From: Victivallales bacterium
GTDB lineage: Bacteria > Verrucomicrobiota > Lentisphaeria > Victivallales > GWF2-38-69
Assembly: GCA_021733985.1 (NCBI GenBank)
Contig: JAIPJT010000004.1
Location: 2,923 to 66,922 of the forward strand
Direction: 5' to 3'
Length of the DNA stretch: 64,000 nt
A model generated the notes under the pieces. The model did not search any database, was not told the DNA's origin, and was given only the letters and a program-made list of their open reading frames with translations. Below, piece after piece: positions 18,877 through 36,205 of the stretch; positions within the stretch are counted from its first letter, which is position 1, and each line of letters begins with the position of its first letter. The position numbers and the translations under genes are program-made.

Positions 18877-19123
18877 ACGTCCTCCTATTTTTGTATTAAT
18901 TCTACCGATTTTTACTTCACATTTACAATTTAATATAAAAATACAAACCTTGAATTATTTTTTTAGAAAAAAGTAAAAAGTTAACAGATGGGTAACAAAA
19001 AAATGGAAAATATGTTAATATAGCCTTATAATTTAGACAAAAATAAAAAACCGTCTAAAATAATAAGCCACAGAGTGTGAAGCTTTTTAGTGTAACATTT
19101 AAACTTTTAATAAGGAGTTTTGT

Positions 19124-20215
19124 ATGGAGTTTTATTATAAAAAATTCAGGGAGTTACGAAAAAGCAGGGGGATCAGCAGTCAAGAACTATGCAGGATGCT
19201 TGATATTAGCCGTACAACTTTATGGAAATGGGAAAATAATAAAGTTACTCCATCTCCCGATTTTATTAGACTGATTTCAAAAAAGCTTAATATTAATGTT
19301 TCAGAGGTCAGTTCGCTTTTATCAGAGCCCAAACAAGCCTTAATAGATTATTCAGATTCTGCTGAAACATGTAATCTTCTACTCGACATAGATATGTTTT
19401 CTGTTAAAAATAAAAAACTTAATAAGGCATTAGCAGAAATAGCATCATTACAAACTGACCTGGACCAGGCGTCTCTTATACTGAACGCGATTTTTCGCGG
19501 AATTGGTTTAATATTTTATATTAAAGATACTAACTTAAAATATGTTGCAGCAAACAAAATGTTTTTAAATAATCTCTCGCTTCATTCTTCATACAAAGTT
19601 ATTGGAAAAACAGATTATGATTTTTTCCCTCAAAATGAAGCTAAGGAAAATATAGAACTGGATAAAGAAGTCCTTTATAAAGGAAAATCGTATTGTTCAG
19701 AAGGCTTTATATATGGAACAAGGAAAAAAAAGTGGGGAATAATAGAAAAACATCCGATACCTGATCAAAACGGGAAATTAATTGGTTTAATTTGTACATT
19801 GAAAGACGTAACAGAGCAGAGACGTGCCGAGGCCGAAAATGTAGAGCTACAGAGAGAAAAGGATATACTTTACTCAGCAGTTAACAGTATTGAAAAGGTT
19901 ATAGTGCTTCTATATAACATAGATATCAACCGTAAAGTAAAGTATAGATTTGTAAGCAGGAATTTGCAGAAAATTCTAGGTTATAATACAGAGAATTTTA
20001 TAAAAAACTGTTATCCGCTTATATCAATTATTCATCCCGATCAAAAACAATTAATAGACAATCATTTTCGGAAAAAAGATTCTGGATTCTTTAAGTATAT
20101 ATTTGATATCAGAAAAGAAGACGGCAGTTATATTAAGATGGAAGGAAGGGGGGAAAAGAGGAAAAATCCGGACGGTACATTTACAGTATTAGGTATATTG
20201 ACTAAATTAGATTAG
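19124..20215 (+). CDS. XRE-family HTH + PAS-domain regulator (paralogue 2)
   Basis: LRKSRGISSQELC..ISRTTLWKWE HTH; FYIKDTNLKYVAANKMF PAS; second PAS with IIHPDQ. Confidence 0.82.
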   Translation: MEFYYKKFRELRKSRGISSQELCRMLDISRTTLWKWENNKVTPSPDFIRLISKKLNINVSEVSSLLSEPKQALIDYSDSAETCNLLLDIDMFSVKNKKLNKALAEIASLQTDLDQASLILNAIFRGIGLIFYIKDTNLKYVAANKMFLNNLSLHSSYKVIGKTDYDFFPQNEAKENIELDKEVLYKGKSYCSEGFIYGTRKKKWGIIEKHPIPDQNGKLIGLICTLKDVTEQRRAEAENVELQREKDILYSAVNSIEKVIVLLYNIDINRKVKYRFVSRNLQKILGYNTENFIKNCYPLISIIHPDQKQLIDNHFRKKDSGFFKYIFDIRKEDGSYIKMEGRGEKRKNPDGTFTVLGILTKLD

Positions 20216-20224
20216 GGGATTCAA

Positions 20225-20365
20225 CTCAAATTATGCACTGCGCTGTATCTGCTCCCGCCGTCGTTTACCGAACTATGGCGGGTCAAGTACCATCGCATGA
20301 CTGGTATGTAGAAACTACAGCTGTATTTTGTTGCCTTGCATCTACAGCACACTGCATGTTGCGGG
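20225..20365 (+). repeat. Family A MITE-like repeat copy
   Basis: Ends CTCAAATTATGCA / TGCATGTTGCGGG; internal homology to the 7.0 kb and 10.1-10.57 kb copies. Confidence 0.6.
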
Positions 20366-20368
20366 TTT

Positions 20369-20401
20369 AAAAAACCTGTCTGAATAATATGCAGACAGGT
20401 T
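20369..20401 (-). terminator. Intrinsic terminator of the lysine fermentation operon
   Basis: AACCTGTCTG...CAGACAGGTT stem followed by a T-run on the minus strand. Confidence 0.7.
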
Positions 20402-20455
20402 ATCATATTAGAATAGACCGAAAAGTAAAGAATTTGCATTACATAACTAAGAATA

Positions 20456-21184
20456 TTAAGTCTCAGTTTTCCCAGTTATCTTTTTTGCTATATAAGAAGC
20501 CACATCTTCAGGATAAGTCCCTCTGCTGAAACCCGCGTCGTAGCCAAGTTCTATAGCCAATCTGTTAGTGATTCTGGGGCCGCCAACCACTACTATAAGT
20601 TTATCTCTAAGTCCTTCTGCCTCCAAAAGTTCAATAAGGTTAGTCATATTATGAATATGAACCTCTTTTTGTGTAACAATTTGAGAAATCAATATTGCAT
20701 CTGCATTAACTTTTTTTGCGTACTCAATAAATTCTTCATTTTCAACCTGGGCACCAAGGTTATGAGCTTCTATCATGGTGAATCTTTCGAGCCCGTAATG
20801 ATGGTCATAGCCTTTCATGTTCATTATGGCATCAATGCCGACAGTATGTGCATCTGTACCGGTACAAGCACCTACTATTACAAGTTTTCTTTTGATGTTT
20901 TCTTTTATGTAGTCATTGACTTCATAGAAATCCATACCTTTTTCTACTTCATCGACAACAATTTTATCAAAATCAACAGTAATTGAAGATGTTCCATAAG
21001 CAACAAAAAAAGTAAACCCCCTGCTTAATTCATGTGAATGAGCTATTTCACATTCTTCAAATCCCAGTTTTTTCATATACACAGAAGCTGCTTCATTTGC
21101 TTTGGCGGAAGCATCAACCGGCAAAGTGAAAGATACTTGAACTTTACCGTCGTTTAAAGTATCCCCGTAAGGTCTAATCATCAT
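20456..21184 (-). CDS. kamE: Lysine 5,6-aminomutase beta subunit (cobalamin-binding)
   Basis: RPYGDTLNDGKVQVSFTLP, GTDAHTVGIDAIMNMKG (DxHxxG plus PLP Lys); start moved to RBS-supported ATG. Confidence 0.95.
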   Translation of the reverse strand: MMIRPYGDTLNDGKVQVSFTLPVDASAKANEAASVYMKKLGFEECEIAHSHELSRGFTFFVAYGTSSITVDFDKIVVDEVEKGMDFYEVNDYIKENIKRKLVIVGACTGTDAHTVGIDAIMNMKGYDHHYGLERFTMIEAHNLGAQVENEEFIEYAKKVNADAILISQIVTQKEVHIHNMTNLIELLEAEGLRDKLIVVVGGPRITNRLAIELGYDAGFSRGTYPEDVASYIAKKITGKTET

Positions 21185-21214
21185 TTTACAAACCCTTTCT
21201 TTTATATTCAATTA

Positions 21215-22789
21215 TTATTTAATATTAAGCTTTTTCTTAAGGAATTGTTCCATCGGATTCCAGTAGTCAACTTCTTTTTCTTCTACGCCTTCCAGCCCTT
21301 TACCTCCATTTTTTGGACGGCTTATGTCTGCAAACATTTTCTGTTCTACAGCATCAAACAGACCGGAATCATTAACCTGGTTAAGAAAATCAATTGTTTC
21401 CTGCAGTACCTGTTGAGCTCTTTTCTGGATAATACCATCTTTTTTATATACTATATCTTCAGAAAAATCTGCTATATTATTTAGAACATACTGCGCATTG
21501 GCAACGGCGAGAAATCTATCCTGTATAAATGGAGTATGGATTGCTTCTGTGAGCATACCAAGGAGCAATATACCCTGTTTCGTTGCCCTTGAAACAAAGT
21601 TGAACATGGTGTTCATGGCATAACCTTTAAAAATATCGCCGGTCATATATTTTGTAGGAGGCATATATTTAAGCGGGGCTTCAGGGAAAATTTCACGAGC
21701 CATTTCAGCCTGGCTGAGCTCATACAGGAAACCGTTTTTAATTTCAGGATTCATTTCGAAGGCATGACCAAGGCCCATTTGAGAAGGTTTCATTCCGGAA
21801 CCATAAGCAAACTGTTCATTTATAAGCTGTGAAGCAGTTACTGTAAATGCTTTTTCATATGCGTCAGAAGTAGTCAGATAATTATCTTCACCAGTATTAA
21901 TAACAATGTCGGCAAATGAATTAATCATTCTGGAAAAATGCTGATCAACGAATGTTCTGTACATATTTATATCACGGAAAAGTATACCGTACATTGAGTC
22001 ATTGAGCATCATATCGAGTCTTTCGACAGCGCCCATTGCGGCTATTTCCGGCATGCAAAGACCTGAGCAGTAGTTTACAAGTCTGATATATTTACCAATT
22101 TGTTCACCTGTCTCATCAAGGGCTTTGCGCATTATTTTAAAATTTTCCTGAGTAGCGTAAGTTCCGCCGAACCCCTCTGTTGTCGCCCCGTAAGGTACAT
22201 AGTCAAGTAGGCTTTGACCTGTTGTTCTTATAACGGCTATGACATCAGCACCCTGGTTTGCAGCCGCCTGTGCCTGTTTAACATCTTCATATATATTACC
22301 TGTAGCAACAATTAAATAAAGGAGAGGAGAGTTTTCCTTGTTTTTGCAGCTGTTAATTTTTTCTGTTCTGTATTTTACATTTCCGGAGACTTTTCTGTCA
22401 AATTTATTGACAAGTTCATTTCCTTTTTCCTGAATATATTCGAAATCAACGAGGTCGATTTTTGAAATATCCAGGCCGTTTATTATTTCAGTATTTAATT
22501 CCTCAACGCTTAATCCCTTTTTTAGCAAAGCATTGATATAATATCGTGCGGCACCCCTTCCGAGGTTTTCCGAAAGCTGATTTGATATTATATTTGGAAC
22601 AGGAACACCATCCCGGTTTGCTCCGTCAGCACCGAGCATTCTTAATGTTGCTCTTTCTGTTGAATCTGTTGTATTTTTTCTGATATATTCTTCTACCGGT
22701 TTAACTATTTTTGATGCAAGTTTTCTTGCTTCGGCAATTTTGTTTTCCGATAAACCAAGTTTAGACTTAAATACCCCATTGGTTCTCAT
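21215..22789 (-). CDS. kamD: Lysine 5,6-aminomutase alpha subunit
   Basis: YLIVATGNIYED, IRTTGQSLLDYVPYGAT, NYCSGLCMPEIA, KYMPPTK. Confidence 0.96.
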   Translation of the reverse strand: MRTNGVFKSKLGLSENKIAEARKLASKIVKPVEEYIRKNTTDSTERATLRMLGADGANRDGVPVPNIISNQLSENLGRGAARYYINALLKKGLSVEELNTEIINGLDISKIDLVDFEYIQEKGNELVNKFDRKVSGNVKYRTEKINSCKNKENSPLLYLIVATGNIYEDVKQAQAAANQGADVIAVIRTTGQSLLDYVPYGATTEGFGGTYATQENFKIMRKALDETGEQIGKYIRLVNYCSGLCMPEIAAMGAVERLDMMLNDSMYGILFRDINMYRTFVDQHFSRMINSFADIVINTGEDNYLTTSDAYEKAFTVTASQLINEQFAYGSGMKPSQMGLGHAFEMNPEIKNGFLYELSQAEMAREIFPEAPLKYMPPTKYMTGDIFKGYAMNTMFNFVSRATKQGILLLGMLTEAIHTPFIQDRFLAVANAQYVLNNIADFSEDIVYKKDGIIQKRAQQVLQETIDFLNQVNDSGLFDAVEQKMFADISRPKNGGKGLEGVEEKEVDYWNPMEQFLKKKLNIK

Positions 22790-22803
22790 TCTATTTCCTT
22801 TCA

Positions 22804-24387
22804 TTATTTTTTGGCTAAGTATTTTTTTGCCTGTTTAATTATATTCGTATCAAGGCCGAGAATTTCGGCTATTTTAAGTGCGTCATAACAGGAAGCCCTG
22901 TTTGTATCATGTTCTATTTCATATTGCATAAAACTGTTAATCAGTTTTATTCTTTCTATGAAATCATAACCCGATTTAGATTTATAGTATTCAGTATACT
23001 TTTTATAATCCAGCCCTTTCATTCGGTAGAAGCACATTTCATCAAACTCAGGAAGATTCATAAAATGTGTTGATAAAAACGCATAGGCTATTTTTCTTGT
23101 GCTGAAATCGTTCAGTATGGCGGTTATAAGCGCTTCTGCCTCATGTGAATTTGTAGTACCCGCAAATTCGTCTATTAGATATAAGGCCTTTTCATTTGTA
23201 ATTCTGCAGGATTGAATAAAAGAAAAAATTTCCATACCGTAACTGCTCAAACCTGAAGAGTGTTCATGGTGAAGGTCTCCTATATAATGGAGGTTTTCAA
23301 AGACAGTGGTTTTATATTCTTTTGCAGGTACAAAGAACCCCATCTGTGTTAATACCTGAAGGAAAGCTATAGTTTTAAGAACAACTGTTTTACCACCCAT
23401 ATTAGAGCCGCTAATTACAATCATACGGTTTTTAAACAATACATTCAGCGGATAATATATAGTTTCCAGTTCAAGACAGTGTTCCATTACCGGTATACTT
23501 CTGCCTTCTTTTACTTCAATATTGCATCCGTATTCCTGTAAAACCGGTTTTTGCATATTATATTTTTCTGCAAGTACGGCTTTAGCTAAAATAACATCAA
23601 ATTTGTGTATTGATTTGATGTAACTTTTAATAAGTTTCAATTCTTTTTTTATTTTTGAAGACAGTTCTGTTATAACATTTTTTTCTTCCTGTTTTTCTTC
23701 TATAACAAGCTCTTCCTTGGTATAGTGCAGAGTAAAGTATTTTTCCGGGAGTACAGGCTTTATCAATACTTTGCTTGAGTCATAGCTTTCCTTATAGATA
23801 TAGTTACTGTCCATGTTTAAGACTTTCGCTTCTTCTATAACAATAAAGTTTTGAAATCTGAAATCCAGATTGAAGTTATTCTTAATATATTCAAGCCGTT
23901 CCCGTTTAAGGTTGAATAACTGTTTATCAAAATGTTTTATCCTGTTTCTTATTTCAGCCAGTTTTTCAGAGTAATTTTCACTTAGATAAAATGTTTCCTT
24001 ATTCCCGTTAAGGTTTAATTTTTTAAATAAACCGGTGGGTCTGAATTTCACAAAAAAGAGCATATATATTTCTTCAGGAAGAATTTCAGATATTTTTTTA
24101 TAGTTAAATAAAAACTTTTTAATTTCAAAGATATTAGTTGCGGTATAGCAATCGTTCTCAAGGAAGTTTAAATGCGGTATTCTTTTTAAATGGTATTCCA
24201 GTGAAGATGTTTTAGCAGTATCGCTTACAAGAAGAGAAATAAATTTTTTAATAAAAGAGTATTCAGTATTTAAATATTCTTCAGATGTAAATAATTCCCG
24301 TTTAGTTTTATCATTTTTTCCGTAAGGTGTAAACGGTGAGTATTTTTGATAAAAAGATTCAAACTCTGCAAAATCAAATATATTCAT
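22804..24387 (-). CDS. kamC: MutS-like ATPase, lysine 5,6-aminomutase reactivase subunit
   Basis: ISGSNMGGKT Walker A, GLSSYGMEI, LIDEFAGTTN, STHF; no mismatch-binding domain; adjacent to kamDE. Confidence 0.8.
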   Translation of the reverse strand: MNIFDFAEFESFYQKYSPFTPYGKNDKTKRELFTSEEYLNTEYSFIKKFISLLVSDTAKTSSLEYHLKRIPHLNFLENDCYTATNIFEIKKFLFNYKKISEILPEEIYMLFFVKFRPTGLFKKLNLNGNKETFYLSENYSEKLAEIRNRIKHFDKQLFNLKRERLEYIKNNFNLDFRFQNFIVIEEAKVLNMDSNYIYKESYDSSKVLIKPVLPEKYFTLHYTKEELVIEEKQEEKNVITELSSKIKKELKLIKSYIKSIHKFDVILAKAVLAEKYNMQKPVLQEYGCNIEVKEGRSIPVMEHCLELETIYYPLNVLFKNRMIVISGSNMGGKTVVLKTIAFLQVLTQMGFFVPAKEYKTTVFENLHYIGDLHHEHSSGLSSYGMEIFSFIQSCRITNEKALYLIDEFAGTTNSHEAEALITAILNDFSTRKIAYAFLSTHFMNLPEFDEMCFYRMKGLDYKKYTEYYKSKSGYDFIERIKLINSFMQYEIEHDTNRASCYDALKIAEILGLDTNIIKQAKKYLAKK

Positions 24388-25237
24388 AAGGATTGAAAAC
24401 AACTTTCTCATTTATACAGTTTTTAGTTAAAGCCTGGTTAAAATCTTCCCTCGTTATGTCAAATAAATTTACAGATATAAAGTTCAAGTGGAATTTTTCT
24501 TTATAATATACTGTTGTCCTTTTCAGCAGATCAGAGAGCTCATTCCAATTTAGAAAAATTTTAGTGAAATCATTAATTAGTATTATATTAAAAGCTTCAG
24601 GTATCTTTGAAGCTTTGATATTTGTAAGCGCTCCTTCACAGACAAAGCATTCTTCTTCTTCAAAATCTTTTTCTTTCTTAACAGGAAATTTTTTTACCAA
24701 ATTTAGTGTTTTGATTTGATTTAATGATTTAATTAAATTTTTCTGTGATACTTTCATAACATAAATGAATTCAGCTTCAGGGGCTGAAGTAATTTGAGTT
24801 ATTCTGTTGACTGCTCCGTCAATAAGATTAGTCTTTATAACTGTTTCTTCTCTTAAATATTTTAAAATAAAATCAAGCTGTGAATTGTTTTCGGGGCCGA
24901 TAAGTTCTATAGAACCTTTCCTGAGGATTCTGATTAACACAAGCCGTCCGAGTTTTGAGATAAAAGGGAATACTTCTACTACTTCAAAAACTGCATCTGT
25001 AACAGTTAATGCATATTCACAAGTTACAATATAATCATTTTTTTCTGCTGTAATACCGGGTTTTGGAGTTCCGAAGATCATATCTTCTTTTTCTCCGTCA
25101 ATGCCGATCGTCATATAACATAATGAATCGGCCTTCTTCCTTATGAGCGGAAGAAGGTAATTCAAAAATGTTGTTTTTCCGGCATTTTTGCTGTTCCCGG
25201 TTATAAAAGTAGTTTTATTGATTATACTATTTATCAT
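24374..25237 (-). CDS. kamB: Lysine 5,6-aminomutase reactivase subunit (P-loop)
   Basis: GNSKNAGKTT, TIGIDGE, LIDGAVNR; position before kamC-kamD-kamE. Confidence 0.75.
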   Translation of the reverse strand: MINSIINKTTFITGNSKNAGKTTFLNYLLPLIRKKADSLCYMTIGIDGEKEDMIFGTPKPGITAEKNDYIVTCEYALTVTDAVFEVVEVFPFISKLGRLVLIRILRKGSIELIGPENNSQLDFILKYLREETVIKTNLIDGAVNRITQITSAPEAEFIYVMKVSQKNLIKSLNQIKTLNLVKKFPVKKEKDFEEEECFVCEGALTNIKASKIPEAFNIILINDFTKIFLNWNELSDLLKRTTVYYKEKFHLNFISVNLFDITREDFNQALTKNCINEKVVFNPYEYI

Positions 25238-25243
25238 GTCTTT

Positions 25244-26446
25244 TCAATTTGCCTGTTTTGTTCTAACATCTATTACTTTTTCATTTTCGGTTTCAAATGT
25301 GATAGAACCATATTTTTTTGTCTCCATACAATAACCTGCTATGAATTCATCGAGGGTAAGTTTCTGACTTTCCAATGGGGGGAAAAGCCCGTTTTGCAAT
25401 GCACATTTTGCACCATGCGGCATGCCGTCAGAACTGAAAATTAAATCTACGCCGGGAATATAGCCAGCCTGGTCAATAAGCATCCTGAACGGATTATTTT
25501 TCTTTAGGCACTCGTCAGTTAATTTACCTTTGAAAAGTATGGATTCTTCCGAGAAGTTTATCTGCATAGAAAGTACTATTCCAAGTTTTTTGCATTTTAA
25601 AGCTACTTCCGGTGATATATACTGAGCATGTTCGATTCTCATACATGGAAGCTTAATGTTTTCCTGTTCTATAATATCTACTAATTGTTCAATTACTATT
25701 TCACCTAAAGCATGTGCCGCGACAGCCTTACCTTCGGATTCGGCAAATTTGAGATCATTTTTAAGTTCCTCATCTGTATAGAGTTTTATTCCACCGTCAA
25801 AGTCGGAGTTTACATACCCGTTAATAGCTGCTGTACCGGGACTTATTGCCCCGTCAAGAAAAATTTTAAAACCGGCTATTTTATCTTTATATTTTTCAGG
25901 CAGAGTTTTATAAGATTTCAGGTCTATCCAGATTTTTACTCTGTGTAAATAACCGGTTTTTTCATATAAATCTATAAAATCTGTGTTGGGTAAAAGCAGA
26001 TCCTGCATTTTGTAAATTTGATTTTCTTTAAGCATGTAATCGAAAAATTCATGAACATCTTTTTCAGTAATTTTTTTAATTTGCGGAATAAATTTAATAA
26101 TCGAGTAAAGGTTATGTTCGATCCATTCAAGATTTTCAATATTATTTACAATTTCCGGAAATTCATCTATTAACTTGTCTTTTGCCTTCTGATTCATTAT
26201 GTAATTGTGAAGGGAACTATCGCATATCAGTACTGCAGGAAGTTCTTTTTCAATTCTGTCTTTTGCTGTATCTCCGAAAGTCCATCCAAGAACAACATTT
26301 ACATCTTCGTCAAGTTCTTTTATTCTGTTTAAAGCTTTTTCCAAATCCTTAACGTTTCTCAGATCGAGACAGTTTCTCAGTGCCAAATAAAAGGAAGTGT
26401 GAGTGTGATGGTCATTAAGCAGCGGAATATTGTGTGTTGTTTTCAT
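25244..26446 (-). CDS. Metal-dependent amidohydrolase (amidohydrolase_3/YtcJ-like)
   Basis: DHHTH, KIFLDGA, AAHALGE, RIEHAQ, FSSDGMP metal ligands. Confidence 0.82.
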   Translation of the reverse strand: MKTTHNIPLLNDHHTHTSFYLALRNCLDLRNVKDLEKALNRIKELDEDVNVVLGWTFGDTAKDRIEKELPAVLICDSSLHNYIMNQKAKDKLIDEFPEIVNNIENLEWIEHNLYSIIKFIPQIKKITEKDVHEFFDYMLKENQIYKMQDLLLPNTDFIDLYEKTGYLHRVKIWIDLKSYKTLPEKYKDKIAGFKIFLDGAISPGTAAINGYVNSDFDGGIKLYTDEELKNDLKFAESEGKAVAAHALGEIVIEQLVDIIEQENIKLPCMRIEHAQYISPEVALKCKKLGIVLSMQINFSEESILFKGKLTDECLKKNNPFRMLIDQAGYIPGVDLIFSSDGMPHGAKCALQNGLFPPLESQKLTLDEFIAGYCMETKKYGSITFETENEKVIDVRTKQAN

Positions 26447-26474
26447 TTTTAACTCCTGTAATATTTAGTTAATA

Positions 26475-27758
26475 TTATTCTTCTTCATGGATTGCCTGAG
26501 GATTGTAGCCTTTTAACTTGTTTACCAGAATCACTAAAATTAAAAAAGCGGTTATTAACAGCATAAATACTGCTCCGGAAATAAAAACAAGTTTAAGCCC
26601 GACAGTTGCTTTGATGTAACTGGAAGCCAATGGAGCGATAACAGTGCCTACTGCTCCGCTTCCTAATACAGCAGTAGTCAGTCTGCTGGTTGCATGAGGA
26701 ACCTGGGTAGTACCTGTAGTAGCAATTGTTGAATATGCTGCTGCAAAGCACATTCCTGTTACTGCGGTAAATAAAAAAGCCCAAATAATACTGATATTCA
26801 ACACGGCCATGAGAAACAGGAGAATACCTGAAAGAGTGCAGATGAAACAGATATAAGTTTCCTGGGAAATTTTTTTTAGTATAAAAGTTGCGGAAAAGCG
26901 GCCGATTATTACAAAACCCCAAAAGGTCGAGATAAGGTAACTGCCGACACTGGCTGTCATTCCTATTTCTTTTTGTCCAAAAATAGGCAGCCAGAATATT
27001 ACAATGGTTTCAGCAATCACATAGAACATTAAAGAAAAACTCATTAAATATACTGTAACAGGCCAGTTAACTAGTTCATCAAGCCATGTCCTGCGGACCT
27101 CCAAATGTTTCGGCCTGGTTTTTTTTGAAGTTGAGACTGAAACTTTTTTGGGCGCTTCAAAGTTTGTAAATAGACAAAGTATAAATGCTAATACTATAAA
27201 AAGAATCACACTTGAAAGTGTTATATTCCAACTGAATTTAAGTTCATCAAGCATATAATTGAAAATTTTAGGAGCAGTAGTTGCACCGATGGCATATACC
27301 AGGGAAACTAATGCCATTTTAGAGGCTCTTTCTTTGTTATCCGTGATATAGATTATCAGATAGTATCCTAAGGAGAAGCACATTCCGTAACCAATTCCGT
27401 ATACAAACAATGCTATGTAAAAAATATGGATATTGGTTGAAATCAGTATTATCCCAATGCCAATAAAAAGTAAAATACTTGTAAGGATATTAGTTGTCTT
27501 AAGTGAAACAAATTCCAGCACAAGGCCTGTTGTGGCAAAAACCATAACTGCACTTGATAATGTAAAAAACGAATAACTTGCTACAGCGCTTGAAACATCC
27601 ACACCTAAAGCTTTGGCTATATCTCCGATCACAACTCCGATTGCCGGAAAACTCGCACCTAAAAAAATCATATAAAGATATGATACATATTCAATTTTTT
27701 TCTTTTCTGTTTTTAGATAACGCATATAGCGCTGTTTCATCGTTTCAGCAGCATACAT
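26475..27758 (-). CDS. MFS transporter (TsgA-like)
   Basis: About 12 hydrophobic helices in 6+6 arrangement, FWGFVIIGRF motif. Confidence 0.85.
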   Translation of the reverse strand: MYAAETMKQRYMRYLKTEKKKIEYVSYLYMIFLGASFPAIGVVIGDIAKALGVDVSSAVASYSFFTLSSAVMVFATTGLVLEFVSLKTTNILTSILLFIGIGIILISTNIHIFYIALFVYGIGYGMCFSLGYYLIIYITDNKERASKMALVSLVYAIGATTAPKIFNYMLDELKFSWNITLSSVILFIVLAFILCLFTNFEAPKKVSVSTSKKTRPKHLEVRRTWLDELVNWPVTVYLMSFSLMFYVIAETIVIFWLPIFGQKEIGMTASVGSYLISTFWGFVIIGRFSATFILKKISQETYICFICTLSGILLFLMAVLNISIIWAFLFTAVTGMCFAAAYSTIATTGTTQVPHATSRLTTAVLGSGAVGTVIAPLASSYIKATVGLKLVFISGAVFMLLITAFLILVILVNKLKGYNPQAIHEEE

Positions 27759-27792
27759 AAACTCCCCCCTTTTATTTTTAATTAAACATAGT

Positions 27793-27826
27793 AACAGATT
27801 CAGCGTAAACCTACGCTGGATCTGTT
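27793..27826 (-). terminator. Intra-operon stem-loop between kdd and the MFS gene
   Basis: AACAGATTCAGCGTA-AACC-TACGCTGGATCTGTT, 15-bp stem with weak U tract. Confidence 0.6.
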
Positions 27827-27835
27827 TTAAACAAA

Positions 27836-28873
27836 TTAAACATATAATTGTTTGTAGAGCTCTCTGATTCGGGTGCTTTCACGGATGATATTAATAGCTA
27901 TATTTGCGTGATTATAAGCATAACCGTTTCCTACAATCATATCAATATCTTTGCCTACACCTTCAGCGCCCAGGGCTGCTTTAGTAAAAGATGTGGCCAT
28001 GCTGAAAAAATATACAGTTCCTCTGTCCTTTGTCATGAGAATTGAACCCATTTCTGTATTCTGTATGTTTACATTATTTATAACTACATCGCAGAGCTTT
28101 CCATTTGTTGCAGCCATAGCTTTTTCATAGCAGCTGATAGCGTCAGTTGCGTCAAGCTTTATGACCTCGTCACATAGTTCCAAACTTTTCAGGAGTTTAA
28201 GGTTTTCATCTGAGTAGTCCATGCCTATGATTTTACCGTTGGGACCGGCGGCTTTTTTAGCGGCATAAGCGCAGAGAATGCCTGATTTTCCTGCAGCACC
28301 GATAATTGCAACTGTATTGTCTTTTTTGACAAGCCTTTCTGTCTGGGCCGGTGCCCCGGCTACATCTAATACAGCCAAAGCAAGTGAAGGTGGAATATCA
28401 TCAGGAAGCTTTGCATATATAGCTGATTCAAATAGTATTGCCTGTCCTTTAATTACAACCTGGTCAATGTTCTTTTTTACTTCCACAATTTCATCTATTT
28501 TTAATGGAGTCAGTGACAAGGATACCAGGCTTGCAATTCTGTCTCCCTCTTTGACTGAAACTTTAGATTTTATTTTATCTCCGATTGCATCTATATTCCC
28601 AATAAACATGCCGCCTGAACCGGTCACGGGATTTTTAAGTTTGCCGTTTCTCTTTACTAAATCCAGGATGATTTCCTTGATTTTTTCACTATCCCCGCCT
28701 GCTTGTTCTTTTATCTGTGTAAAACTTGCAGAGTCCACATTTAAAATATCAACATTGACACGTATTTCGTTGTCAAATAGCTCCATGTCATTTGAAATTT
28801 TTAAAGCTGGCTGAGGCAGTACTCTGGCCGGCTCGATTACTCTGTGGATTCCGTATGGGTTCCCTTGTTTCAT
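27836..28873 (-). CDS. kdd: L-erythro-3,5-diaminohexanoate dehydrogenase
   Basis: GNPYGIHRVIEP, LNVDSASF, NPVTGSGGM, LDVAGAPAQ, FFSMATSF; start at RBS-supported ATG 28873. Confidence 0.95.
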   Translation of the reverse strand: MKQGNPYGIHRVIEPARVLPQPALKISNDMELFDNEIRVNVDILNVDSASFTQIKEQAGGDSEKIKEIILDLVKRNGKLKNPVTGSGGMFIGNIDAIGDKIKSKVSVKEGDRIASLVSLSLTPLKIDEIVEVKKNIDQVVIKGQAILFESAIYAKLPDDIPPSLALAVLDVAGAPAQTERLVKKDNTVAIIGAAGKSGILCAYAAKKAAGPNGKIIGMDYSDENLKLLKSLELCDEVIKLDATDAISCYEKAMAATNGKLCDVVINNVNIQNTEMGSILMTKDRGTVYFFSMATSFTKAALGAEGVGKDIDMIVGNGYAYNHANIAINIIRESTRIRELYKQLYV

Positions 28874-28895
28874 GTTACCTGTTCCTTTGTTTGTT

Positions 28896-29714
28896 TTAAT
28901 TTTTAAGTTTAAACATTTCTCTGACATCTGCGGGCGTTGCAACAGAATATCCTGCGGCTTTGGATATTTTTGCAGCTCGTTCTACAAGCTGAGCATTGCT
29001 TTCGGCTAAAATACCTTTATCGAAATATATATTGTCTTCAAAGCCTACGCGCATAAAACCGCCAAGAGCAAGAGCTCCGTAATGGGCTTCAAGTGCTGCT
29101 TTGCCGCCAATGCCTATTACTGTCCAGCAAGTGCTTTCCGGCAGTCTCCTTACAAAAAAGCCAAGAGTTTCGACATCATATTTTGCCGCACCAGGGACAT
29201 TTAAAACAAAACTGTAATGGTAAGGCGGTTCTATGAGTCCTTCTTTAACAAGGAGATTTGCAGAATAAACATGGGACAAGTCAAAACATTCGAGAGTAGG
29301 TTTAACATTCTGTCTTTTCATTTCTTTAGCAAATTGCCGCATAATAGGCAAAGTATTGACAATATATTCATTTCCGAAATTCACTGTTCCGCAGTCAAGA
29401 GATGCCATTTCTGGTTTCAGTGAAACAACTTCAAGTCTTTCCTCGGGTGACATACCTACACCGCCGCCGGTTGTGACTTCAATGACTATATCACATTTTT
29501 TTCTAATAAGTTCAACTGCTTTTTGGAAAATATTAATATCCATCGTTGCTCTGCCGTCTTTGTCTCTGACATGCAAGTGGCAGATAGAAGCTCCCTTAAG
29601 ATATGAATTATAAGTACTTTCTGCTATTTCTTCGGGAGTAACAGGCAGGTTCGGATTATCTTTTTTGGATGTTTCGGCACCGCAGACAGCCACAGTAATG
29701 ACCATTTTTTTCAT
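28896..29714 (-). CDS. kce: 3-keto-5-aminohexanoate cleavage enzyme
   Basis: ITVAVCGAE, HLHVR, TTGG, RVGFEDN (BKACE/DUF849); operon context. Confidence 0.93.
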   Translation of the reverse strand: MKKMVITVAVCGAETSKKDNPNLPVTPEEIAESTYNSYLKGASICHLHVRDKDGRATMDINIFQKAVELIRKKCDIVIEVTTGGGVGMSPEERLEVVSLKPEMASLDCGTVNFGNEYIVNTLPIMRQFAKEMKRQNVKPTLECFDLSHVYSANLLVKEGLIEPPYHYSFVLNVPGAAKYDVETLGFFVRRLPESTCWTVIGIGGKAALEAHYGALALGGFMRVGFEDNIYFDKGILAESNAQLVERAAKISKAAGYSVATPADVREMFKLKN

Positions 29715-29749
29715 AGTTAAATTTCTCCTGTATTTTATGATTCCCGTTA

Positions 29750-30403
29750 TTATTTAATATCTATAGTTTTTATATCGTCAGGAACAAGAAATTCTGCATC
29801 TGTTGCTTTTTTGATATCATCTATTGTTGTATCCGGAGCGATTTCTTCTAAAACCATTCCTTTATTAGTTATCTTAAAAACACCCATTTCGGTTATAATG
29901 TCAGTAACTTTTCCTGCAGCTGTTAACGGCAGGGAACATTTTTTCATTATTTTAGGATTCCCTTTTTGAGTGTGCAGCATTGCGACTATAACTCTCTTTG
30001 CGCCGGAAACAAGGTCCATAGCCCCACCCATTCCGGGAACCATTTTGCCGGGTATTTTCCAATTGGCAATATCGCCGCTTTGGCTTACCTGTAATGCGCC
30101 GAGAATTGTGACATCTACATGTCCGCCGCGGATAATACCAAAAGAAGTAGCCGAATCGAAATACATTGCACCCGGGTTTGCAGTAACAGGCTGTCCTCCT
30201 GCATTTGTAAGCCTGAGATCTTCATTACCTTTTTCAGGAGCAGGTCCCAGTCCCATAATTCCGTTCTCTGACTGAAAAGTAATATCCTGGCCACTTTCTA
30301 TATAATTTGCCACCATGGTAGGAAGGCCTATGCCGAGGTTAACTACATTGCCGTCATTAAGCTCTTTTGCGGCTCGTTTAGCGATTAATACTTTAGGATT
30401 CAT
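29750..30403 (-). CDS. atoA: 3-oxoacid (acetoacetate) CoA-transferase subunit B
   Basis: VNLGIGLPT, QSENG catalytic Glu, GMGGAMDLV. Confidence 0.9.
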   Translation of the reverse strand: MNPKVLIAKRAAKELNDGNVVNLGIGLPTMVANYIESGQDITFQSENGIMGLGPAPEKGNEDLRLTNAGGQPVTANPGAMYFDSATSFGIIRGGHVDVTILGALQVSQSGDIANWKIPGKMVPGMGGAMDLVSGAKRVIVAMLHTQKGNPKIMKKCSLPLTAAGKVTDIITEMGVFKITNKGMVLEEIAPDTTIDDIKKATDAEFLVPDDIKTIDIK

Positions 30404-30404
30404 A

Positions 30405-31085
30405 TTACAGTTTTCCTCCATCAACTATATAATCAACAAAGATATGAGAAGTTACTACATTGTCGGGGTCAATCTCGCCGACTTCAACGATTTTTGCTGC
30501 TTCAACAATTACTCTGTCACAAGCCATTGCCATTAGCGGATTAAAGTTTCTTTCAGTTTTGCTGTAGCAGATATTGCCTTTTCTGTCTACAATAGCACCT
30601 TTTATCAGAGCGACATCTCCTCTCATAGGCTTTTCCAGGAGGTAGGTCTTTCTGTCAACAACAATTTTTTGCTTATCTTTTTCCACTTCTGTTTTTAGTC
30701 CTGTCGGTGTTAAAATACCTCCAAGCCCGAAACCAGCGGCTCTGATTTGTTCGGCGAGTGTGCCTTGCGGAACTAAAGTTACTTTAGCTTCTCCGGTATT
30801 CATCTGTTTACCGGTTTCCTTATTTGTCCCAATGTGGGTTGATATAAGATGTGAAATCTGTTTATTGACTATTAATTTGCCTATACCGGCTTTAATATTA
30901 CCGATATCTTCTGCGAAGCCTGAGTCATTACATATTACTGTAAGATTTTCAACTTTTTTATTACATAGTTCATCAATAAGCCTGTGCGGTGCACCGCAGG
31001 ATAAAAAACCGCCTATCATTAGAGTGTCGCCTTCTCTTATGAGGTCGGCGGCGATTTCTGCTGTAATAATTTTACTTTTACTCAT
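30405..31085 (-). CDS. atoD: 3-oxoacid (acetoacetate) CoA-transferase subunit A
   Basis: MIGGF, PQGTLAEQIRAAG, RNFNPLMA. Confidence 0.9.
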   Translation of the reverse strand: MSKSKIITAEIAADLIREGDTLMIGGFLSCGAPHRLIDELCNKKVENLTVICNDSGFAEDIGNIKAGIGKLIVNKQISHLISTHIGTNKETGKQMNTGEAKVTLVPQGTLAEQIRAAGFGLGGILTPTGLKTEVEKDKQKIVVDRKTYLLEKPMRGDVALIKGAIVDRKGNICYSKTERNFNPLMAMACDRVIVEAAKIVEVGEIDPDNVVTSHIFVDYIVDGGKL

Positions 31086-31151
31086 TTCTATTTCCTGTTT
31101 TAGCAAATATAAAATATTAAAAATGACGTTTCCTGTTAACCGATTTAAACT

Positions 31152-32399
31152 TTAGCAGTATTTTTCTTCTAAAGCTTTAAAGGTTTCATCGATTGACTTT
31201 AAGGTGTATTTTAAGTCTTTATCTGTATGTCGATAACAAACATACCAGTGGTGATAAGGCTGCAGGAATACATTTTTTCTAATCATTTCAGTATAGAATT
31301 CTTTCCTGATCGCTTTATATGATCCATCTTCATTCTTTGGAAAAGTGATAAAGAACATCGGCGGAATTCCTGTCAGATCTGCATCAATTTTACTTTCAAC
31401 GAGAATTTTTTTAATGCCGTTCATCAAGTATTCGCCCTTTTTCCATATTGTTTCAAGAATATCATTATTTTCGAGTAGTTCTATTGTTTTAAGAGCAGCA
31501 ACATGGCTTATACTGTTGGGGAAGAATGTAGAAGATATGAATACATTTTTGACTGCTTCTTTCATGAATTCTTTTTTTCCGGCTACAGCTCCTATCGGGT
31601 AACCGTTAGCCATAGCTTTGCCGAAAACAGCCATATCAGGTGTTACCCCGTAATATTTCTGTGCACCCCCAAGCGTGACTCTGAAACCGGTTCTTATCTC
31701 GTCAAAAATAACTACAGCGCCATACCTATGTGCAAGTTCCTTAACACTTTCCAGATATCCGGGTTTGGGAGCTTCCATAGGTTTTGCAGTCGGATGCGCA
31801 AAAGGGGTGATAATAACCGCTGCTGTATTGTTCTCATGTTCTTTCAGTAAACTTTCGAGATTTTCAAGATCATTATAATGAAATTCGTGAATATCTTCAT
31901 AAACTTTTTTAGGGACTCCGCCTTTTACTTCTACGCACCAGTTATGCCACCCGTGATATCCGCATCTTAATACTTTTGTCTTCTGTGTATAGGATCGGGC
32001 TATTCTTATTGCGCTTGTTGTTGCATCTGAGCCGGTTGTTACAAAAAGGCTCATTTCTGCGCAGGGAATGTGTTCACGCATTTTTACAGCCAAATCATTC
32101 TGAAATTTCTGAGTTAAGGAAAAACAAAATCCTTTTTCTCTTATTTGTTTAATAACGGCTTCATCGATTTCTTCTTCTCTGTATCCTAAAAGTATCGGGC
32201 CGTATGCACAAAGGTAATCAATATATTCATTACCGTCAATATCTTCTATTCTGCCGCCTTTAGCTTTGTCAAAATAAATAGGATATTCACCTTCTACAAA
32301 GTTATAAGGCCTTCTAATCCCGAGTACACCGCCGGGGATATTTTCTTTGCCTCTTTCGTATTCATTGAGTGAATTGGTGAGATTCAGCTTTTCTGTCAT
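31152..32399 (-). CDS. kat: Class III aminotransferase, probable 3-aminobutyryl-CoA aminotransferase
   Basis: PGGVLGIRRPYNFVEGEYP, FDEIRTGFR, FGKAMANG, SSTFFPNS, QPYHH resemble the Cloacamonas Kat as recalled; first gene of a lysine operon lacking kal. Confidence 0.82.
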   Translation of the reverse strand: MTEKLNLTNSLNEYERGKENIPGGVLGIRRPYNFVEGEYPIYFDKAKGGRIEDIDGNEYIDYLCAYGPILLGYREEEIDEAVIKQIREKGFCFSLTQKFQNDLAVKMREHIPCAEMSLFVTTGSDATTSAIRIARSYTQKTKVLRCGYHGWHNWCVEVKGGVPKKVYEDIHEFHYNDLENLESLLKEHENNTAAVIITPFAHPTAKPMEAPKPGYLESVKELAHRYGAVVIFDEIRTGFRVTLGGAQKYYGVTPDMAVFGKAMANGYPIGAVAGKKEFMKEAVKNVFISSTFFPNSISHVAALKTIELLENNDILETIWKKGEYLMNGIKKILVESKIDADLTGIPPMFFITFPKNEDGSYKAIRKEFYTEMIRKNVFLQPYHHWYVCYRHTDKDLKYTLKSIDETFKALEEKYC

Positions 32400-32607
32400 A
32401 ATTAACTCCTAATGTTATTTTTTATCCAAAAACTGATATTTGTGAGCCTCTGAAAAATAATGATATCATTGTATATTTTCATTACAATAAAAAAAATAAT
32501 TTACTATTGAAAATAAAAAAAATATATAACTAAAAGTCAAACAAATAATTGACTTATAAATTAATTAATATTTATTTGAATAAAAAAGATAAATAAAGGA
32601 AGGTGAA

Positions 32608-34173
32608 ATGTTACTATACTATAAAAAATTAAGATCACTAAGAAAAGCCACAGGCTTACAGACCAAAGTGTTTTGTGAACGCATAGGTGTTTCAGTTTCA
32701 ACTTTGTGGCACTGGGAGAAAGGCAGTAAAACGCCATCAGAGAAAAGAGTTAGAAAATTAGCGAAAGTTTTATGCGTATCGGTTGATGAAATATCGGATC
32801 TGACTCCTGAATACAAAAAATCAGATCAGGATCTGTCTGAGATAATCAATATCTGGCGTGACAATTCGGGTTTGAGTATGAAGGAATCGGAAGCCGAGTT
32901 TAATATACTTATAAATAAATTAATTAGGCAGCATAAAAACCTGATTCAGCATTCCTTAATAACAAAAGCAATACTTTCATCTATTAATTCAATTATATAT
33001 ATTAAAGACATCAATCAAAAATATTTAGTTGCCAATGATGCTTTTATTGAATTATTGGGATTGATTAATGGTTACAGGGTTGACGGAAAAACAGATTTTG
33101 ATTTTTATAATAGTACAGAAGCTAAAGAGATTATTAATCAGGACAATCAGGTTCTTTCTACTGGTAAGCCCATAACAAATTTAAACAGTTTTATGCCCGG
33201 TACAAAAAAGAAGAGACATGCATTAATTTCAAAGTTTCCAATTCTTGATTCAGAGAATAAAATTGTAGGACTTATTGGGACTTACAATGATATTACAGAA
33301 ATGAAAAAGGCGGGAAGAGTAAGAGAGATACTTGAAATATATGTGGGGGCGATGACAGACTGCTTATCTGTTTTTTTCAGTCACAATTATAAGTACATAT
33401 TTGTAAATAATGCTTATGCAGATATTTTCGGATATCCTGTAGAAAAATTTTATGAGGGTGGACTGATTGATTTTTTTGCTGAAAAATGTGTTCATCCTGA
33501 TGACAGGGAACAAGAAAAAAAATATTTAAAGGAAAAAAACTGGCCTAAACAACGTATTTACAGGATTATTAAACCGAACGGTGATGTCAGGTGGCTGGAA
33601 GGAAGTGTGAACAGAAGAAAATATTTTGGTAAGGAATGCTGTATTTCAGTTAACCGTGATATAACAGAAAGAGTTTACGAATCTGCCTTTAGCGACCTGT
33701 TCGGGCTTATACTGGAACATTCTGATGATGTCCTGTGGATTAGAGATAAAACAGAAAATGAAGGGTTGGTTTTTGTATCAGTTTCTGTCAGAAAACTTTA
33801 TGGTCATTCAGAAGATATTTTTTACAAAGATTCATTTTTTTGGTTAAATAAATGTCTTTATTCAAAAGATAAAACTGTATGGTTATTAAACGAAGAAAAC
33901 AGTTCTCTCCGGGACTATAAAAAGGAATACAGGATATATGATTCTAAACAGCAGCTTAAGTGGATAGAATTAACATGCTTCGAATACAAATTTTTAGGTA
34001 AAGAGTGTTATTGTTATCTTGAAAAAAATATTACTGATAAAAAGGCTGTGGAAAAGTCAAAGGAAAATGAAAGCCTAAGAAAGGTTGCGAAAAAACTAAG
34101 AAAAATGGATTTTAATACAGATTTAATTTCCGAGATAACAGAATTAAGTAGAAAACAAATTGAAGTTTTATAG
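32608..34173 (+). CDS. XRE-family HTH + three PAS domains regulator with Rpn-like C-terminal tail (paralogue 3)
   Basis: HTH (VSVSTLWHWE), PAS repeats (IYIKD, VHPDDRE, DITE), tail VAKKLRKMDFNTDLISEITELSRKQIEVL. Confidence 0.82.
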   Translation: MLLYYKKLRSLRKATGLQTKVFCERIGVSVSTLWHWEKGSKTPSEKRVRKLAKVLCVSVDEISDLTPEYKKSDQDLSEIINIWRDNSGLSMKESEAEFNILINKLIRQHKNLIQHSLITKAILSSINSIIYIKDINQKYLVANDAFIELLGLINGYRVDGKTDFDFYNSTEAKEIINQDNQVLSTGKPITNLNSFMPGTKKKRHALISKFPILDSENKIVGLIGTYNDITEMKKAGRVREILEIYVGAMTDCLSVFFSHNYKYIFVNNAYADIFGYPVEKFYEGGLIDFFAEKCVHPDDREQEKKYLKEKNWPKQRIYRIIKPNGDVRWLEGSVNRRKYFGKECCISVNRDITERVYESAFSDLFGLILEHSDDVLWIRDKTENEGLVFVSVSVRKLYGHSEDIFYKDSFFWLNKCLYSKDKTVWLLNEENSSLRDYKKEYRIYDSKQQLKWIELTCFEYKFLGKECYCYLEKNITDKKAVEKSKENESLRKVAKKLRKMDFNTDLISEITELSRKQIEVL

Positions 34174-34223
34174 TTTTATAAGTTTACCGAATAACTTTTT
34201 TATAAAGGGAATTTAAAATATCT

Positions 34224-34616
34224 ATGAATAATAATAAAAAATATATTTACAAAGAGGGGTTTAATTTTAATTTTGATAATTCCGCCTGTGAACATTGCGG
34301 AGGAAAATGCTGTTCCGGAGAGAGCGGTTATATCTGGATAACTCAGGCGGAAATAAAAAAAACAGCTGAATATTTAGATGTTAAATTAAATACTTTTTTT
34401 ACAGAATATTTAAGATTTAAAAATGGTAGTTATACTATAAAAGATATTAAGTACGGTGGTTATTATTCCTGCCTCTTTTTTGATAGAGAAGAAAATAAAT
34501 GTCTAATATATCCGGTTAGACCTTTACAGTGTAGAACATACCCGTTCTGGGAAATGTATATGGGAGATTCTGAAGAATTATTTGATGATTGTCCAGGTGT
34601 AAAAAAGCTTCCATGA
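34224..34616 (+). CDS. YkgJ family cysteine-cluster protein
   Basis: CEHCGGKCC, CLFFD...CLIYPVRPLQCRTYPFW, CPG. Confidence 0.9.
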   Translation: MNNNKKYIYKEGFNFNFDNSACEHCGGKCCSGESGYIWITQAEIKKTAEYLDVKLNTFFTEYLRFKNGSYTIKDIKYGGYYSCLFFDREENKCLIYPVRPLQCRTYPFWEMYMGDSEELFDDCPGVKKLP

Positions 34617-34641
34617 AACAGGGTGCATGCACCCTGTTTTT
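34616..34641. terminator. Bidirectional intrinsic terminator between ykgJ-like gene and kamA
   Basis: Perfect palindrome AAACAGGGTGCATGCACCCTGTTT plus T-run. Confidence 0.8.
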
Positions 34642-34685
34642 GTTTCAGAAAAGATTAAACTTCGCTGAACGAAGAACAGCATTAA

Positions 34686-35933
34686 CTATCTCCTGTTCAA
34701 ATTCTGTATATTTTCCTCGAGCAGGGTTGCCACTCCTTCTGATGGAGTAAAAAATTTATATGTGTTTTTACAGATATTACATCTTCCGCAGTCTGAAGAG
34801 GTATCTGATGGCTGAGTATATACTGTTATTGTACCTTCATAGTTACGCAGTATGAGTTTTTTATCAGATCTCGAAATTACATAGTTGGGCATTACCGGTA
34901 TTTTACCACCTCCGCCTGGTGCATCTACAACGTAAGTCGGAACAGCCATTCCGGAAGTATGGCCTCTTAAATTTTCGATTATTTCAATACCTTTTCCTAC
35001 GGAAGTTCTGAAATGACTTATTCCTGTAGATAGATCACATTGATATATATAGTACGGTTTTACTCTTATTTTCAAAAGTTCATGCATTAACTCTTTCATA
35101 ATAAAAGGACAGTCGTTTACATCACGCAGCAGTACGGTTTGATTGCCCACAGGGACCCCGTTCTCAGTAAGTTTGTCGCAGGCGATTTTTGCTTCTTCTG
35201 TTATTTCGTCCGGATGATTAAAGTGAGTATTGAAGAAAATAGGCTGATATTTTTTTATAATATTTACAAGGTTGTCTGTTATTCTCTGCGGCATAACTAC
35301 AGGAGTTCTGCTTCCAATTCTGATGATTTCGACATGATTAATATTTCTTAAAGTTTCCAGAATATACTCAATCCTGCTATCCGGTAATGTTAAAGGATCA
35401 CCTCCGGAAACAATTACATCCCTGATCTGCTTATTTTTTTTAATATAATTTACAGCATCCAAAAAACATTCCTTATTAAAACCGCTTTCATCACAACCTA
35501 CAACTCTGCGGCGAGTACAGTGTCTGCAGTACATAGAGCATTTTCTTGTAACAAGGAGGAGAACTCTGTCAGGGTATCGATGAGTTAAACCTGGTACAGG
35601 TGAATCTATATCTTCATGGAGTGGGTCAGAAATATCCGAATCATCTTTAATTAGTTCCTGTATTCTTGGGACAGCCTGTAATCTGATGGGGCATCTAATA
35701 TAATTTTCATCGATGAGTGCGGCGTAATAGGGGGTAATTGCCATTTTGAATTTTTTTAAACTTATGGCCAGCTGTTCTTTTTCCTTTTCATCAATTGTAA
35801 TGATCTTTGAAAGAGACGAAATGTCTTTAATTGTGTTATTTAACTGCCATTTCCAGTCATTCCAGTCTTCGTCTTTTACATCCTTAAATATCGGAATATG
35901 CTTGTGGAGTACTTTTCTGTAGATCTTCTTCAT
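34686..35933 (-). CDS. kamA: L-lysine 2,3-aminomutase (radical SAM, PLP)
   Basis: WNDWKWQL, LTHRYPDR, CSMYCRHCTRRR, SGGDPL, DAPGGGGKIP. Confidence 0.96.
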   Translation of the reverse strand: MKKIYRKVLHKHIPIFKDVKDEDWNDWKWQLNNTIKDISSLSKIITIDEKEKEQLAISLKKFKMAITPYYAALIDENYIRCPIRLQAVPRIQELIKDDSDISDPLHEDIDSPVPGLTHRYPDRVLLLVTRKCSMYCRHCTRRRVVGCDESGFNKECFLDAVNYIKKNKQIRDVIVSGGDPLTLPDSRIEYILETLRNINHVEIIRIGSRTPVVMPQRITDNLVNIIKKYQPIFFNTHFNHPDEITEEAKIACDKLTENGVPVGNQTVLLRDVNDCPFIMKELMHELLKIRVKPYYIYQCDLSTGISHFRTSVGKGIEIIENLRGHTSGMAVPTYVVDAPGGGGKIPVMPNYVISRSDKKLILRNYEGTITVYTQPSDTSSDCGRCNICKNTYKFFTPSEGVATLLEENIQNLNRR

Positions 35934-36205
35934 GGTAATGTTTTCTCCCCCAAATTATTTTATTTAAAATGATAAAAACCCGAATAATATAGCTCGGTTC
36001 AGAAAATTAAACAGCCAAGAAGTAAAATAATATTTTATATTTTATATTTTTCCAGTTTTTTTGTATGAATCGATTGTTCTTTTTTTAATAGAGATTTATA
36101 ATATAAGCTGTAACAATTAATATGAATTGTAATTATTTAACAGTTAACTAATAGAGTTACTGTTCTTATTATGTTTAATTTACCATTATCGAAAGGGAAG
36201 TAACA

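Follow-up and report, generated by a model that had tools for sequence, protein, structure and literature searches.

A putative Kat-variant lysine-fermentation operon in an uncultured lake bacterium of the Victivallales carries a transporter gene and an amidohydrolase gene between kdd and kamB, and this importer-and-hydrolase add-on is a real and conserved feature of the operon within the lineage. The operon lies in a 64,000-nucleotide stretch of DNA (hereafter the window; contig JAIPJT010000004.1, positions 2,923 to 66,922, of assembly GCA_021733985.1) from a 2.46-Mb metagenome-assembled genome (MAG) of 71 contigs that is 95.9% complete and is referred to below as G000. Its 11 genes form a block on the minus strand, from 32399 to 20456, in the order kat, ctfA, ctfB, kce, kdd, a hairpin, the transporter gene, the amidohydrolase gene, kamB, kamC, kamD and kamE. 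The two additional genes encode a major facilitator superfamily (MFS) transporter (P0002; 26475..27758, minus strand; PF07690, 94.8 bits against a cut-off of 33.4) and a YtcJ-like, putatively binuclear-metal amidohydrolase (P0001; 25244..26446, minus strand; PF07969, 55.7 bits against a cut-off of 29.7). Spacing is tight: the MFS gene begins 77 bp after kdd, the hydrolase gene follows it after 28 bp, and 6 bp separate the hydrolase gene from kamB. A first-pass annotation, made from the letters and their open reading frames, had described this same order on one strand with a hairpin after kdd, and the reading frames, the family matches and the 14-pair stem of the hairpin all agree with it.

The fermentation of lysine to acetate and butyrate has been mapped well, and its natural feed is usually taken to be free lysine. 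The pathway itself, the Kat variant, is known; what is new is the uncharacterised enzyme subfamily added at its centre. We favor, with about even confidence, the explanation that the operon gained a two-gene accessory feeder for the import and hydrolysis of an amide-linked lysine conjugate, with release of lysine. The MFS transporter would import a small amide-linked lysine derivative, the cytoplasmic YtcJ-like hydrolase would use its binuclear metal site to cut the amide bond, and the freed lysine would join the pathway, most likely as L-alpha-lysine that KamA then converts to beta-lysine. We infer that transporter and hydrolase share a substrate and that the product is lysine, and likewise the identity of the acyl group. 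An importer and an amidohydrolase conserved in such an operon suggest that masked lysine, be it acyl-lysines, isopeptides or acetyl-beta-lysine, is a food source for some anaerobes. If so, this would be the first physiological role, with a testable substrate class, for a widespread and uncharacterised 400-residue branch of PF07969.

Conservation among relatives

The linkage of hydrolase and kam genes, which the first-pass annotation had raised from this one genome as a matter for a co-occurrence survey, extends beyond it. Among 41 genomes (G000 and 40 relatives), KamD scores over its curated cut-off in three, namely G000, G003 and G005, and these are exactly the genomes that carry the hydrolase or its 66-67% identical ortholog; in all three the hydrolase lies within the operon. 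As located by tblastn of the window proteins on fetched regions, the ortholog stands directly before kamB-kamC-kamD-kamE in both relatives. The complete order in G005 is a regulator and, divergent from it, kat-ctfA-ctfB-kce-kdd-kamA-MFS-amidohydrolase-kamB-kamC-kamD-kamE, and that in G003 is kat-ctfA-ctfB-kce(split)-kdd-kamA-amidohydrolase-kamB-kamC-kamD-kamE. The hydrolase slot before kamB is therefore kept in three genera, and the MFS gene in two of the three genomes. The MFS and hydrolase genes are adjacent in G005 (MFS 54% identical) and again on L093, a 3-kb contig with an MFS of 53% and a hydrolase of 69% identity that was one of two short contigs yielded by a metagenome scan for close relatives; the other, L094, is too short to be informative.

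Because kamA lies inside the operon in G005 and G003, its outlying position in the window is a local rearrangement of this genome and not a design feature. At E <= 1e-20 the amidohydrolase family is present in five of the 41 genomes, all from the window's own taxonomic family (four of the nine other genomes of that family). In wider samples it turns up in 5 of 251 genomes from the order, which all belong to one family, and in 2 of 401 genomes sampled across the phylum. KamD is found in 3 of those 401 (G000, G005 and G043).

Hydrolase paralogs and their transporters

G000 holds three paralogs of the hydrolase with about 50% mutual identity, and each adjoins a transporter: the MFS protein in the window and HAAAP-type permeases on contigs C2 and C71, with both the gene order and the transporter family varying among the three. 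That three of three paralogs stand beside transporters from two families is the strongest argument for one imported substrate shared by transporter and hydrolase.

The cluster on C2 (C2:13025-19648; L004:5026-11649) consists of an amidohydrolase (50% identity), a HAAAP permease, DapF and KamA, together with a divergent HTH-PAS regulator, and contains no kamDE. Its KamA is a second copy beside the window's kamA product, to which it is 71% identical, and the genome has no more than these two of the KamA family; both copies pass the TIGR03820 "AblA" model. Since a hydrolase of this clade is clustered here with KamA and without kamDE, the clade product should be a KamA substrate, i.e., alpha-lysine. 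We accordingly regard alpha-lysine as a more likely product than beta-lysine, and the C2 cluster may serve to feed the kam operon. No match to the beta-lysine acetyltransferase AblB (TIGR03827) was obtained in G000 at E <= 0.01, in an assembly of the completeness given above, which argues that both KamA genes are catabolic. DapF, too, is encoded twice in the genome, the C2 copy scoring 185 bits and the other 216. D-lysine is also a KamDE substrate, judging by Pfam and NCBIfam names, and as a matter of speculation the extra DapF may racemise lysine.

The third paralog, on C71, sits after another HAAAP-type permease. In G005, on contig C9 (L015:8656-17289), a permease-hydrolase pair of this C71 type (68% ortholog) is found tail-to-tail, at a distance of 170 bp, with an ornithine-fermentation operon comprising ortB, a 126-residue open reading frame that takes the place of OraS but matches no family, oraE and the GlmL-like Or-4. 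A KamD-family search of G000, of a kind that detects the G005 OraE at E = 1e-42, returned no comparable gene. Downstream of the third paralog, C71:3478-9550 (L005) encodes two tandem proteins of about 1000 residues, each with a response-regulator receiver and PPDK_N. A further homolog of the amidohydrolase family, at G005:C15:417081-418247 (42% identity), contains an internal TAA stop and is possibly a pseudogene.

Taken more broadly, a clade of cytoplasmic YtcJ-like amidohydrolases, each with its own importer, could funnel omega-N-acylated diamino acids into B12-dependent aminomutase fermentations. We think this generalization rather unlikely; if true, it would amount to an undescribed anaerobic scavenging of compatible solutes and modified amino acids.

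Sequence, structure and family of the hydrolase

The hydrolase has 400 residues, with the N-terminus MKTTHNIPLLNDHHTH and an HxH motif at residues 14-16. With the motif starting at residue 14, a signal peptide would not fit in front of it, and by its sequence the enzyme looks cytoplasmic and functional. Alignments of 25 and of 81 family members show H14, H16, K194, H245, H273 and D340 without exception; by analogy, these six residues would form a binuclear-metal site with a bridging (carboxylated) lysine, and their individual ligand roles are assigned on the same footing.

An AlphaFold2 model of the protein is of high confidence (predicted local distance difference test, pLDDT, 96; predicted template modeling score, pTM, 0.92). 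By sequence, profile and fold alike, the closest matches in the PDB are the Pyrococcus structures 3igh and 3icj (Foldseek E = 5e-19 and 1e-18; TMq 0.68 and 0.69). Farther Foldseek matches, with TM scores of about 0.35-0.4, are dipeptidases and carboxypeptidases of the cog1228 type, and the farther matches are directed at amino acids: an Xaa-Pro dipeptidase, the Lys/Arg carboxypeptidase Cc2672 and ochratoxinase.

Databases offer little by way of a name. Among NCBIfam models the hydrolase has just a weak Xaa-Pro dipeptidase match (24.5 bits against a cut-off of 500), a protein atlas gives nothing beyond clusters called "amidohydrolase family protein", and the JGI label for its homologs is "predicted amidohydrolase YtcJ" (COG1574). 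The family branch, PF07969 proteins of about 400 residues, has 868 database matches at E <= 0.001. In a quick maximum-likelihood tree of 81 sequences, with branch support from the Shimodaira-Hasegawa-like approximate likelihood ratio test (SH-aLRT) and no bootstrap, the paralog types form one clade of 22 on a long branch (SH-aLRT 100), made up of 13 operon-type sequences, six C2/C71-like sequences (48-54% identity) and three others. Position 76, four residues away from the invariant H80, is Asp in this clade and Asn in 92% of the other 59 sequences. An additional acidic group close to the active site would go well with a substrate that bears an amino group, and we take D76 as only a hint.

Candidate substrates

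As a tentative first guess, by analogy, the substrate would be an N-epsilon- or omega-N-acyl-L-lysine. The guess is taken from the YtcJ-like epsilon-lysine acylases of Streptomyces (EC 3.5.1.17): the available excerpts of PMC10699109 class these enzymes as YtcJ-like and report that SgELA cleaves N-epsilon-acetyl-lysine and not N-alpha-acetyl-lysine. Likewise, the accessible part of a 2026 preprint (10.64898/2026.04.05.716592) describes PF07969 enzymes that deconjugate bile-acid amides, which places N-acyl-amino-acid hydrolysis within the range of the family. Lysine iso- or dipeptides are doubtful candidates, with N-epsilon-acetyl-beta-lysine an improbable one, and other amides take the remainder of what is a rough, subjective split.

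Alternative explanations

Several observations weigh against the import and hydrolysis of a lysine conjugate as the role of this gene pair. Direct gene context comes from three genomes of one family only, and because a single cassette was possibly inherited by all three, they are not independent. In G003 the hydrolase stands without the MFS, and kce (L014:4982-7372, contig C150) is split by an opposite-strand IS4-family transposase gene, so the G003 operon may be inactive. In another family of the phylum, G043 has a compact, high-GC Kat-type operon, kce-kdd-kamA-kamD-kamE-thiolase-kat (L099:8816-16793, contig C22), that lacks the hydrolase, the MFS, kamB and kamC, with CoA-transferase also absent; the module is therefore accessory and not intrinsic to the Kat variant. 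The nearest solved structures, 3igh and 3icj, are themselves uncharacterised, share 18-19% identity with the hydrolase and say nothing on its substrate. Finally, the sequencing runs for the locus are DNA only and labelled lake water metagenome, with no RNA run listed.

Co-location elsewhere was gauged indirectly, by matching contigs of equal size across the match tables for the hydrolase, KamB and KamD. Five further contigs apparently carry a clade hydrolase together with a close KamB or KamD (17908, 60758, 178744, 15128 and 12709). To be set against the proposed role are four contigs with a 62-71% identical clade hydrolase and no KamB or KamD partner among the matches listed (20943, 206254, 1467293 and 4296673, the last of which carries three hydrolase paralogs), as are at least six contigs with close KamB or KamD and no matched hydrolase (123795, 42892, 42255, 41266, 92356 and 34964). 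The linkage of hydrolase and kam genes may not be universal. Since the procedure misses the known case of G003, its blanks are weak evidence either way.

The wider family belongs on the same side of the balance. In a survey of 80 loci from species-representative genomes (neighbors at E <= 1e-8), 77 loci, at 35-45% identity, have no kam, MFS or HAAAP neighbors like those of the window, the exceptions being three Victivallales loci. Among the sources of these 77 are Desulfobacterales, Thermoplasmatota, Parabeggiatoa, Aminicenantes and rumen MAGs. Their neighbors are conserved within lineages only and are mostly housekeeping genes, such as GcpE with a MopE-motif protein in rumen MAGs, or an MFS, a topoisomerase and a succinyl-CoA ligase in Thermoplasmatota, with no family-wide partner.

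These observations bear most directly on the possibility that the MFS and hydrolase are passengers, acting on an amide unrelated to lysine and belonging to one laterally acquired cassette that a few genera inherited. The patchiness of the hydrolase family in phylum and order, which KamD shares, would fit such a history, as would the unrelated neighbors of distant homologs and the possible presence of some clade members in genomes without a close kamD. Yet the slot between kamA or the MFS gene and kamB has been kept in three genera despite rearrangement of the operon (kamA moved, the MFS lost, an insertion sequence inserted), and two more paralogs have independent links, one to a KamA cluster and the other to an operon for ornithine aminomutase. 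We consider passenger genes a doubtful explanation.

The first-pass annotation had proposed another route, with N-epsilon-acetyl-beta-lysine as one candidate substrate: the MFS would import the conjugate, the hydrolase would deacetylate it, and the resulting beta-lysine would pass directly to KamDE in a bypass of KamA. The hydrolase does lie directly before kamBCDE, and the missing AblB match suggests that G000 is a consumer of the solute rather than its producer; many distant family members are from saline or marine MAGs (by record titles). Literature searches found biosynthesis of this osmolyte only and no published catabolic route, so that if it is the substrate, the hydrolase would be its first catabolic enzyme. 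The position of kamA speaks against the bypass, however: in G003 and G005 it is part of the same operon, immediately upstream of the hydrolase or the MFS-hydrolase pair, and the C2 paralog is clustered with KamA in the absence of kamDE. The annotation had also pointed to genomes that combine hydrolase and kamDE while lacking kamA, and none of the three genomes with hydrolase and kamDE is of that kind. We judge the bypass improbable, although a beta-lysine conjugate may be one of several substrates, which is compatible with the kamA evidence.

Metabolite repair, in which the hydrolase would reopen a lactam or amide into which a pathway intermediate turns spontaneously (the delta-lactams of 5-amino-3-oxohexanoate and 3,5-diaminohexanoate are examples) and the MFS would be a lysine importer, draws on the cytoplasmic nature of the enzyme, its place amid pathway genes and a lactam chemistry that is plausible from general knowledge, but is very unlikely given that Kat-type operons without the hydrolase exist (G043 and the clusters drawn in the portion of Perret 2011 (PMC3149608) at hand) and that the paralogs are paired with transporters away from kdd and kce.

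Operon genes, regulation and neighboring features

Import and hydrolysis of a lysine conjugate would feed a pathway whose genes are, for the most part, firmly matched. KamA, KamD, KamE and Kdd pass their NCBIfam cut-offs, Kce falls slightly short, and a HemL-like aminotransferase occupies the kat position; on these family matches we classify the locus as a probable Kat-variant lysine-fermentation operon. The first gene, the kat-like class-III (HemL-like) aminotransferase (31152..32399, minus strand; PF00202, 178 bits), has glutamate-1-semialdehyde aminomutase models as its top NCBIfam matches, all under cut-off, and its orthologs (70-73% identity) head the operons of G005 and G003. The CoA-transferase subunits follow on the same strand: ctfA (30405..31106; PF01144, 184.6 bits; TIGR02429, 195 bits, over cut-off) and ctfB (29750..30424; TIGR02428, 313.8 bits, over cut-off). 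Next come kce (28896..29714, minus strand; PF05853, 319.8 bits; NF052387, 367.7 bits, just below the cut-off of 382), whose product aligns with the KCE half alone of the bifunctional KAL-KCE model, and kdd, for 3,5-diaminohexanoate dehydrogenase (27836..28942, minus strand; NF052381, 258.8 bits, over cut-off). The NF052381 match starts at residue 31 and the annotated start of kdd overlaps kce; the true start is probably further downstream.

For the MFS transporter no subfamily model passed, the best NCBIfam match being TsgA (161 bits against a cut-off of 221). Beyond the hydrolase, still on the minus strand, kamB encodes the aminomutase reactivase subunit (24374..25237; NF052386, 145 bits, under the cut-off of 210; orthologs of 60-64% identity hold the same position in G005 and G003) and kamC the MutS-like reactivase ATPase (22804..24411; NF052383, 387.5 bits, over cut-off). 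They are followed by kamD (21215..22804; NF052384, 810 bits, over cut-off; PF09043, 788 bits) and kamE (20456..21211; NF052385, 381.7 bits, over cut-off). The gene for lysine 2,3-aminomutase, kamA, is a separate transcription unit (34686..35933, minus strand; TIGR03820, 599 bits, over cut-off) in the same orientation as the operon. It was said to lie about 2.3 kb away in a unit with its own terminator. The distance stands, at 2287 bp upstream of the kat start with two plus-strand genes between. As for the terminator, the hairpin 3' of kamA (34674-34660) is weak and terminator-like, and such sites in the region number 11 where 11.3 are expected from shuffles, so that the hairpin alone is no evidence of a terminator.

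The hairpin in the 77-bp gap between kdd and the MFS gene (27793..27826, minus strand) has a stem of 14 pairs with a single mismatch and is not followed by a T-run. It folds at -23.8 kcal/mol (z = -2.3; 7 of 200 shuffles fold equally well) and was not called by the terminator scan; it may act in attenuation, in processing or in stabilization. An Rfam scan of 18800-37000 found no riboswitch and no match for this hairpin, its sole hit being U6 at E = 0.81, which is noise.

The two genes between kat and kamA encode a regulator with an XRE-HTH and two PAS domains by domain matches (32608..34173, plus strand), divergent from kat, and a CxxCxxCC (PF03692) protein (34224..34616, plus strand). A second, shorter HTH-PAS regulator (19124..20215, plus strand; 34% identical to the first) is convergent with kamE. 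Paralogs of this XRE-HTH type, with two or three PAS domains and 34-49% mutual identity, flank amino-acid fermentation clusters of the lineage; besides the two in the window, members are encoded at C2:13025-14545 (minus strand) in G000 and at L006:89-1654 (minus strand). The 32608-34173 regulator has a 49% identical ortholog divergent from kat in G005 and a 42% paralog divergent from the C2 hydrolase cluster. A search for a shared operator covered nine regions, promoters or intergenic stretches of G005, of the kam operon and of the clusters on C2 and C71; it gave no common palindrome, and AT-rich k-mers were all that the regions shared.

Elsewhere in the window, at 36206-38384 (plus strand), an acetylating aldehyde dehydrogenase (EutE-like, under cut-offs) is divergent from kamA and has, 3' of its gene, a STAS anti-sigma-antagonist and then an RsbW-like anti-sigma kinase. 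On the other side of the operon, 14302-18876 (minus strand) encodes a protein of 1524 residues that combines two GH18 chitinase stretches with CBM2 cellulose/chitin-binding domains and cadherin-like/Big_9 repeats.

Comparison with known systems

The first-pass annotation held that no canonical step of lysine fermentation needs an amidohydrolase, and the word is indeed absent from the available portion of Perret 2011 (PMC3149608). Relative to the Kat-variant cluster described in that portion, the locus has in common kamA, kamD, kamE, kdd and kce, a HemL-like aminotransferase that probably stands in the kal position, as well as a MutS-like kamC with its small partner kamB and an acetoacetate CoA-transferase. 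It differs in that genes for an MFS and a YtcJ-like amidohydrolase come between kdd (or kamA) and kamB, that kamA is displaced to its own unit, and that the operon is without a thiolase, which G043 has.

For the reaction itself, the closest parallel is offered by SmELA and SgELA (EC 3.5.1.17), metal-dependent YtcJ-like enzymes that, according to the excerpted text of PMC10699109, release L-lysine from N-epsilon-acyl-lysine, which is the reaction proposed here; the likeness is one of description only. Those enzymes come from aerobic actinomycetes and, in the same excerpts, are not described in a lysine catabolic operon. The Pyrococcus YtcJ-like hydrolases 3igh and 3icj have the same fold but are 70-130 residues longer; compared with the solved family members, the hydrolase of the window is shorter and has no N-terminal extension before the HxH motif. 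Finally, osmolyte synthesis by AblA and AblB shares a KamA-family aminomutase with the present locus. The Abl system is a biosynthetic one that depends on the acetyltransferase AblB, of which none was matched in G000, whereas the chemistry proposed for the window would be of the reverse type, a deacylation.

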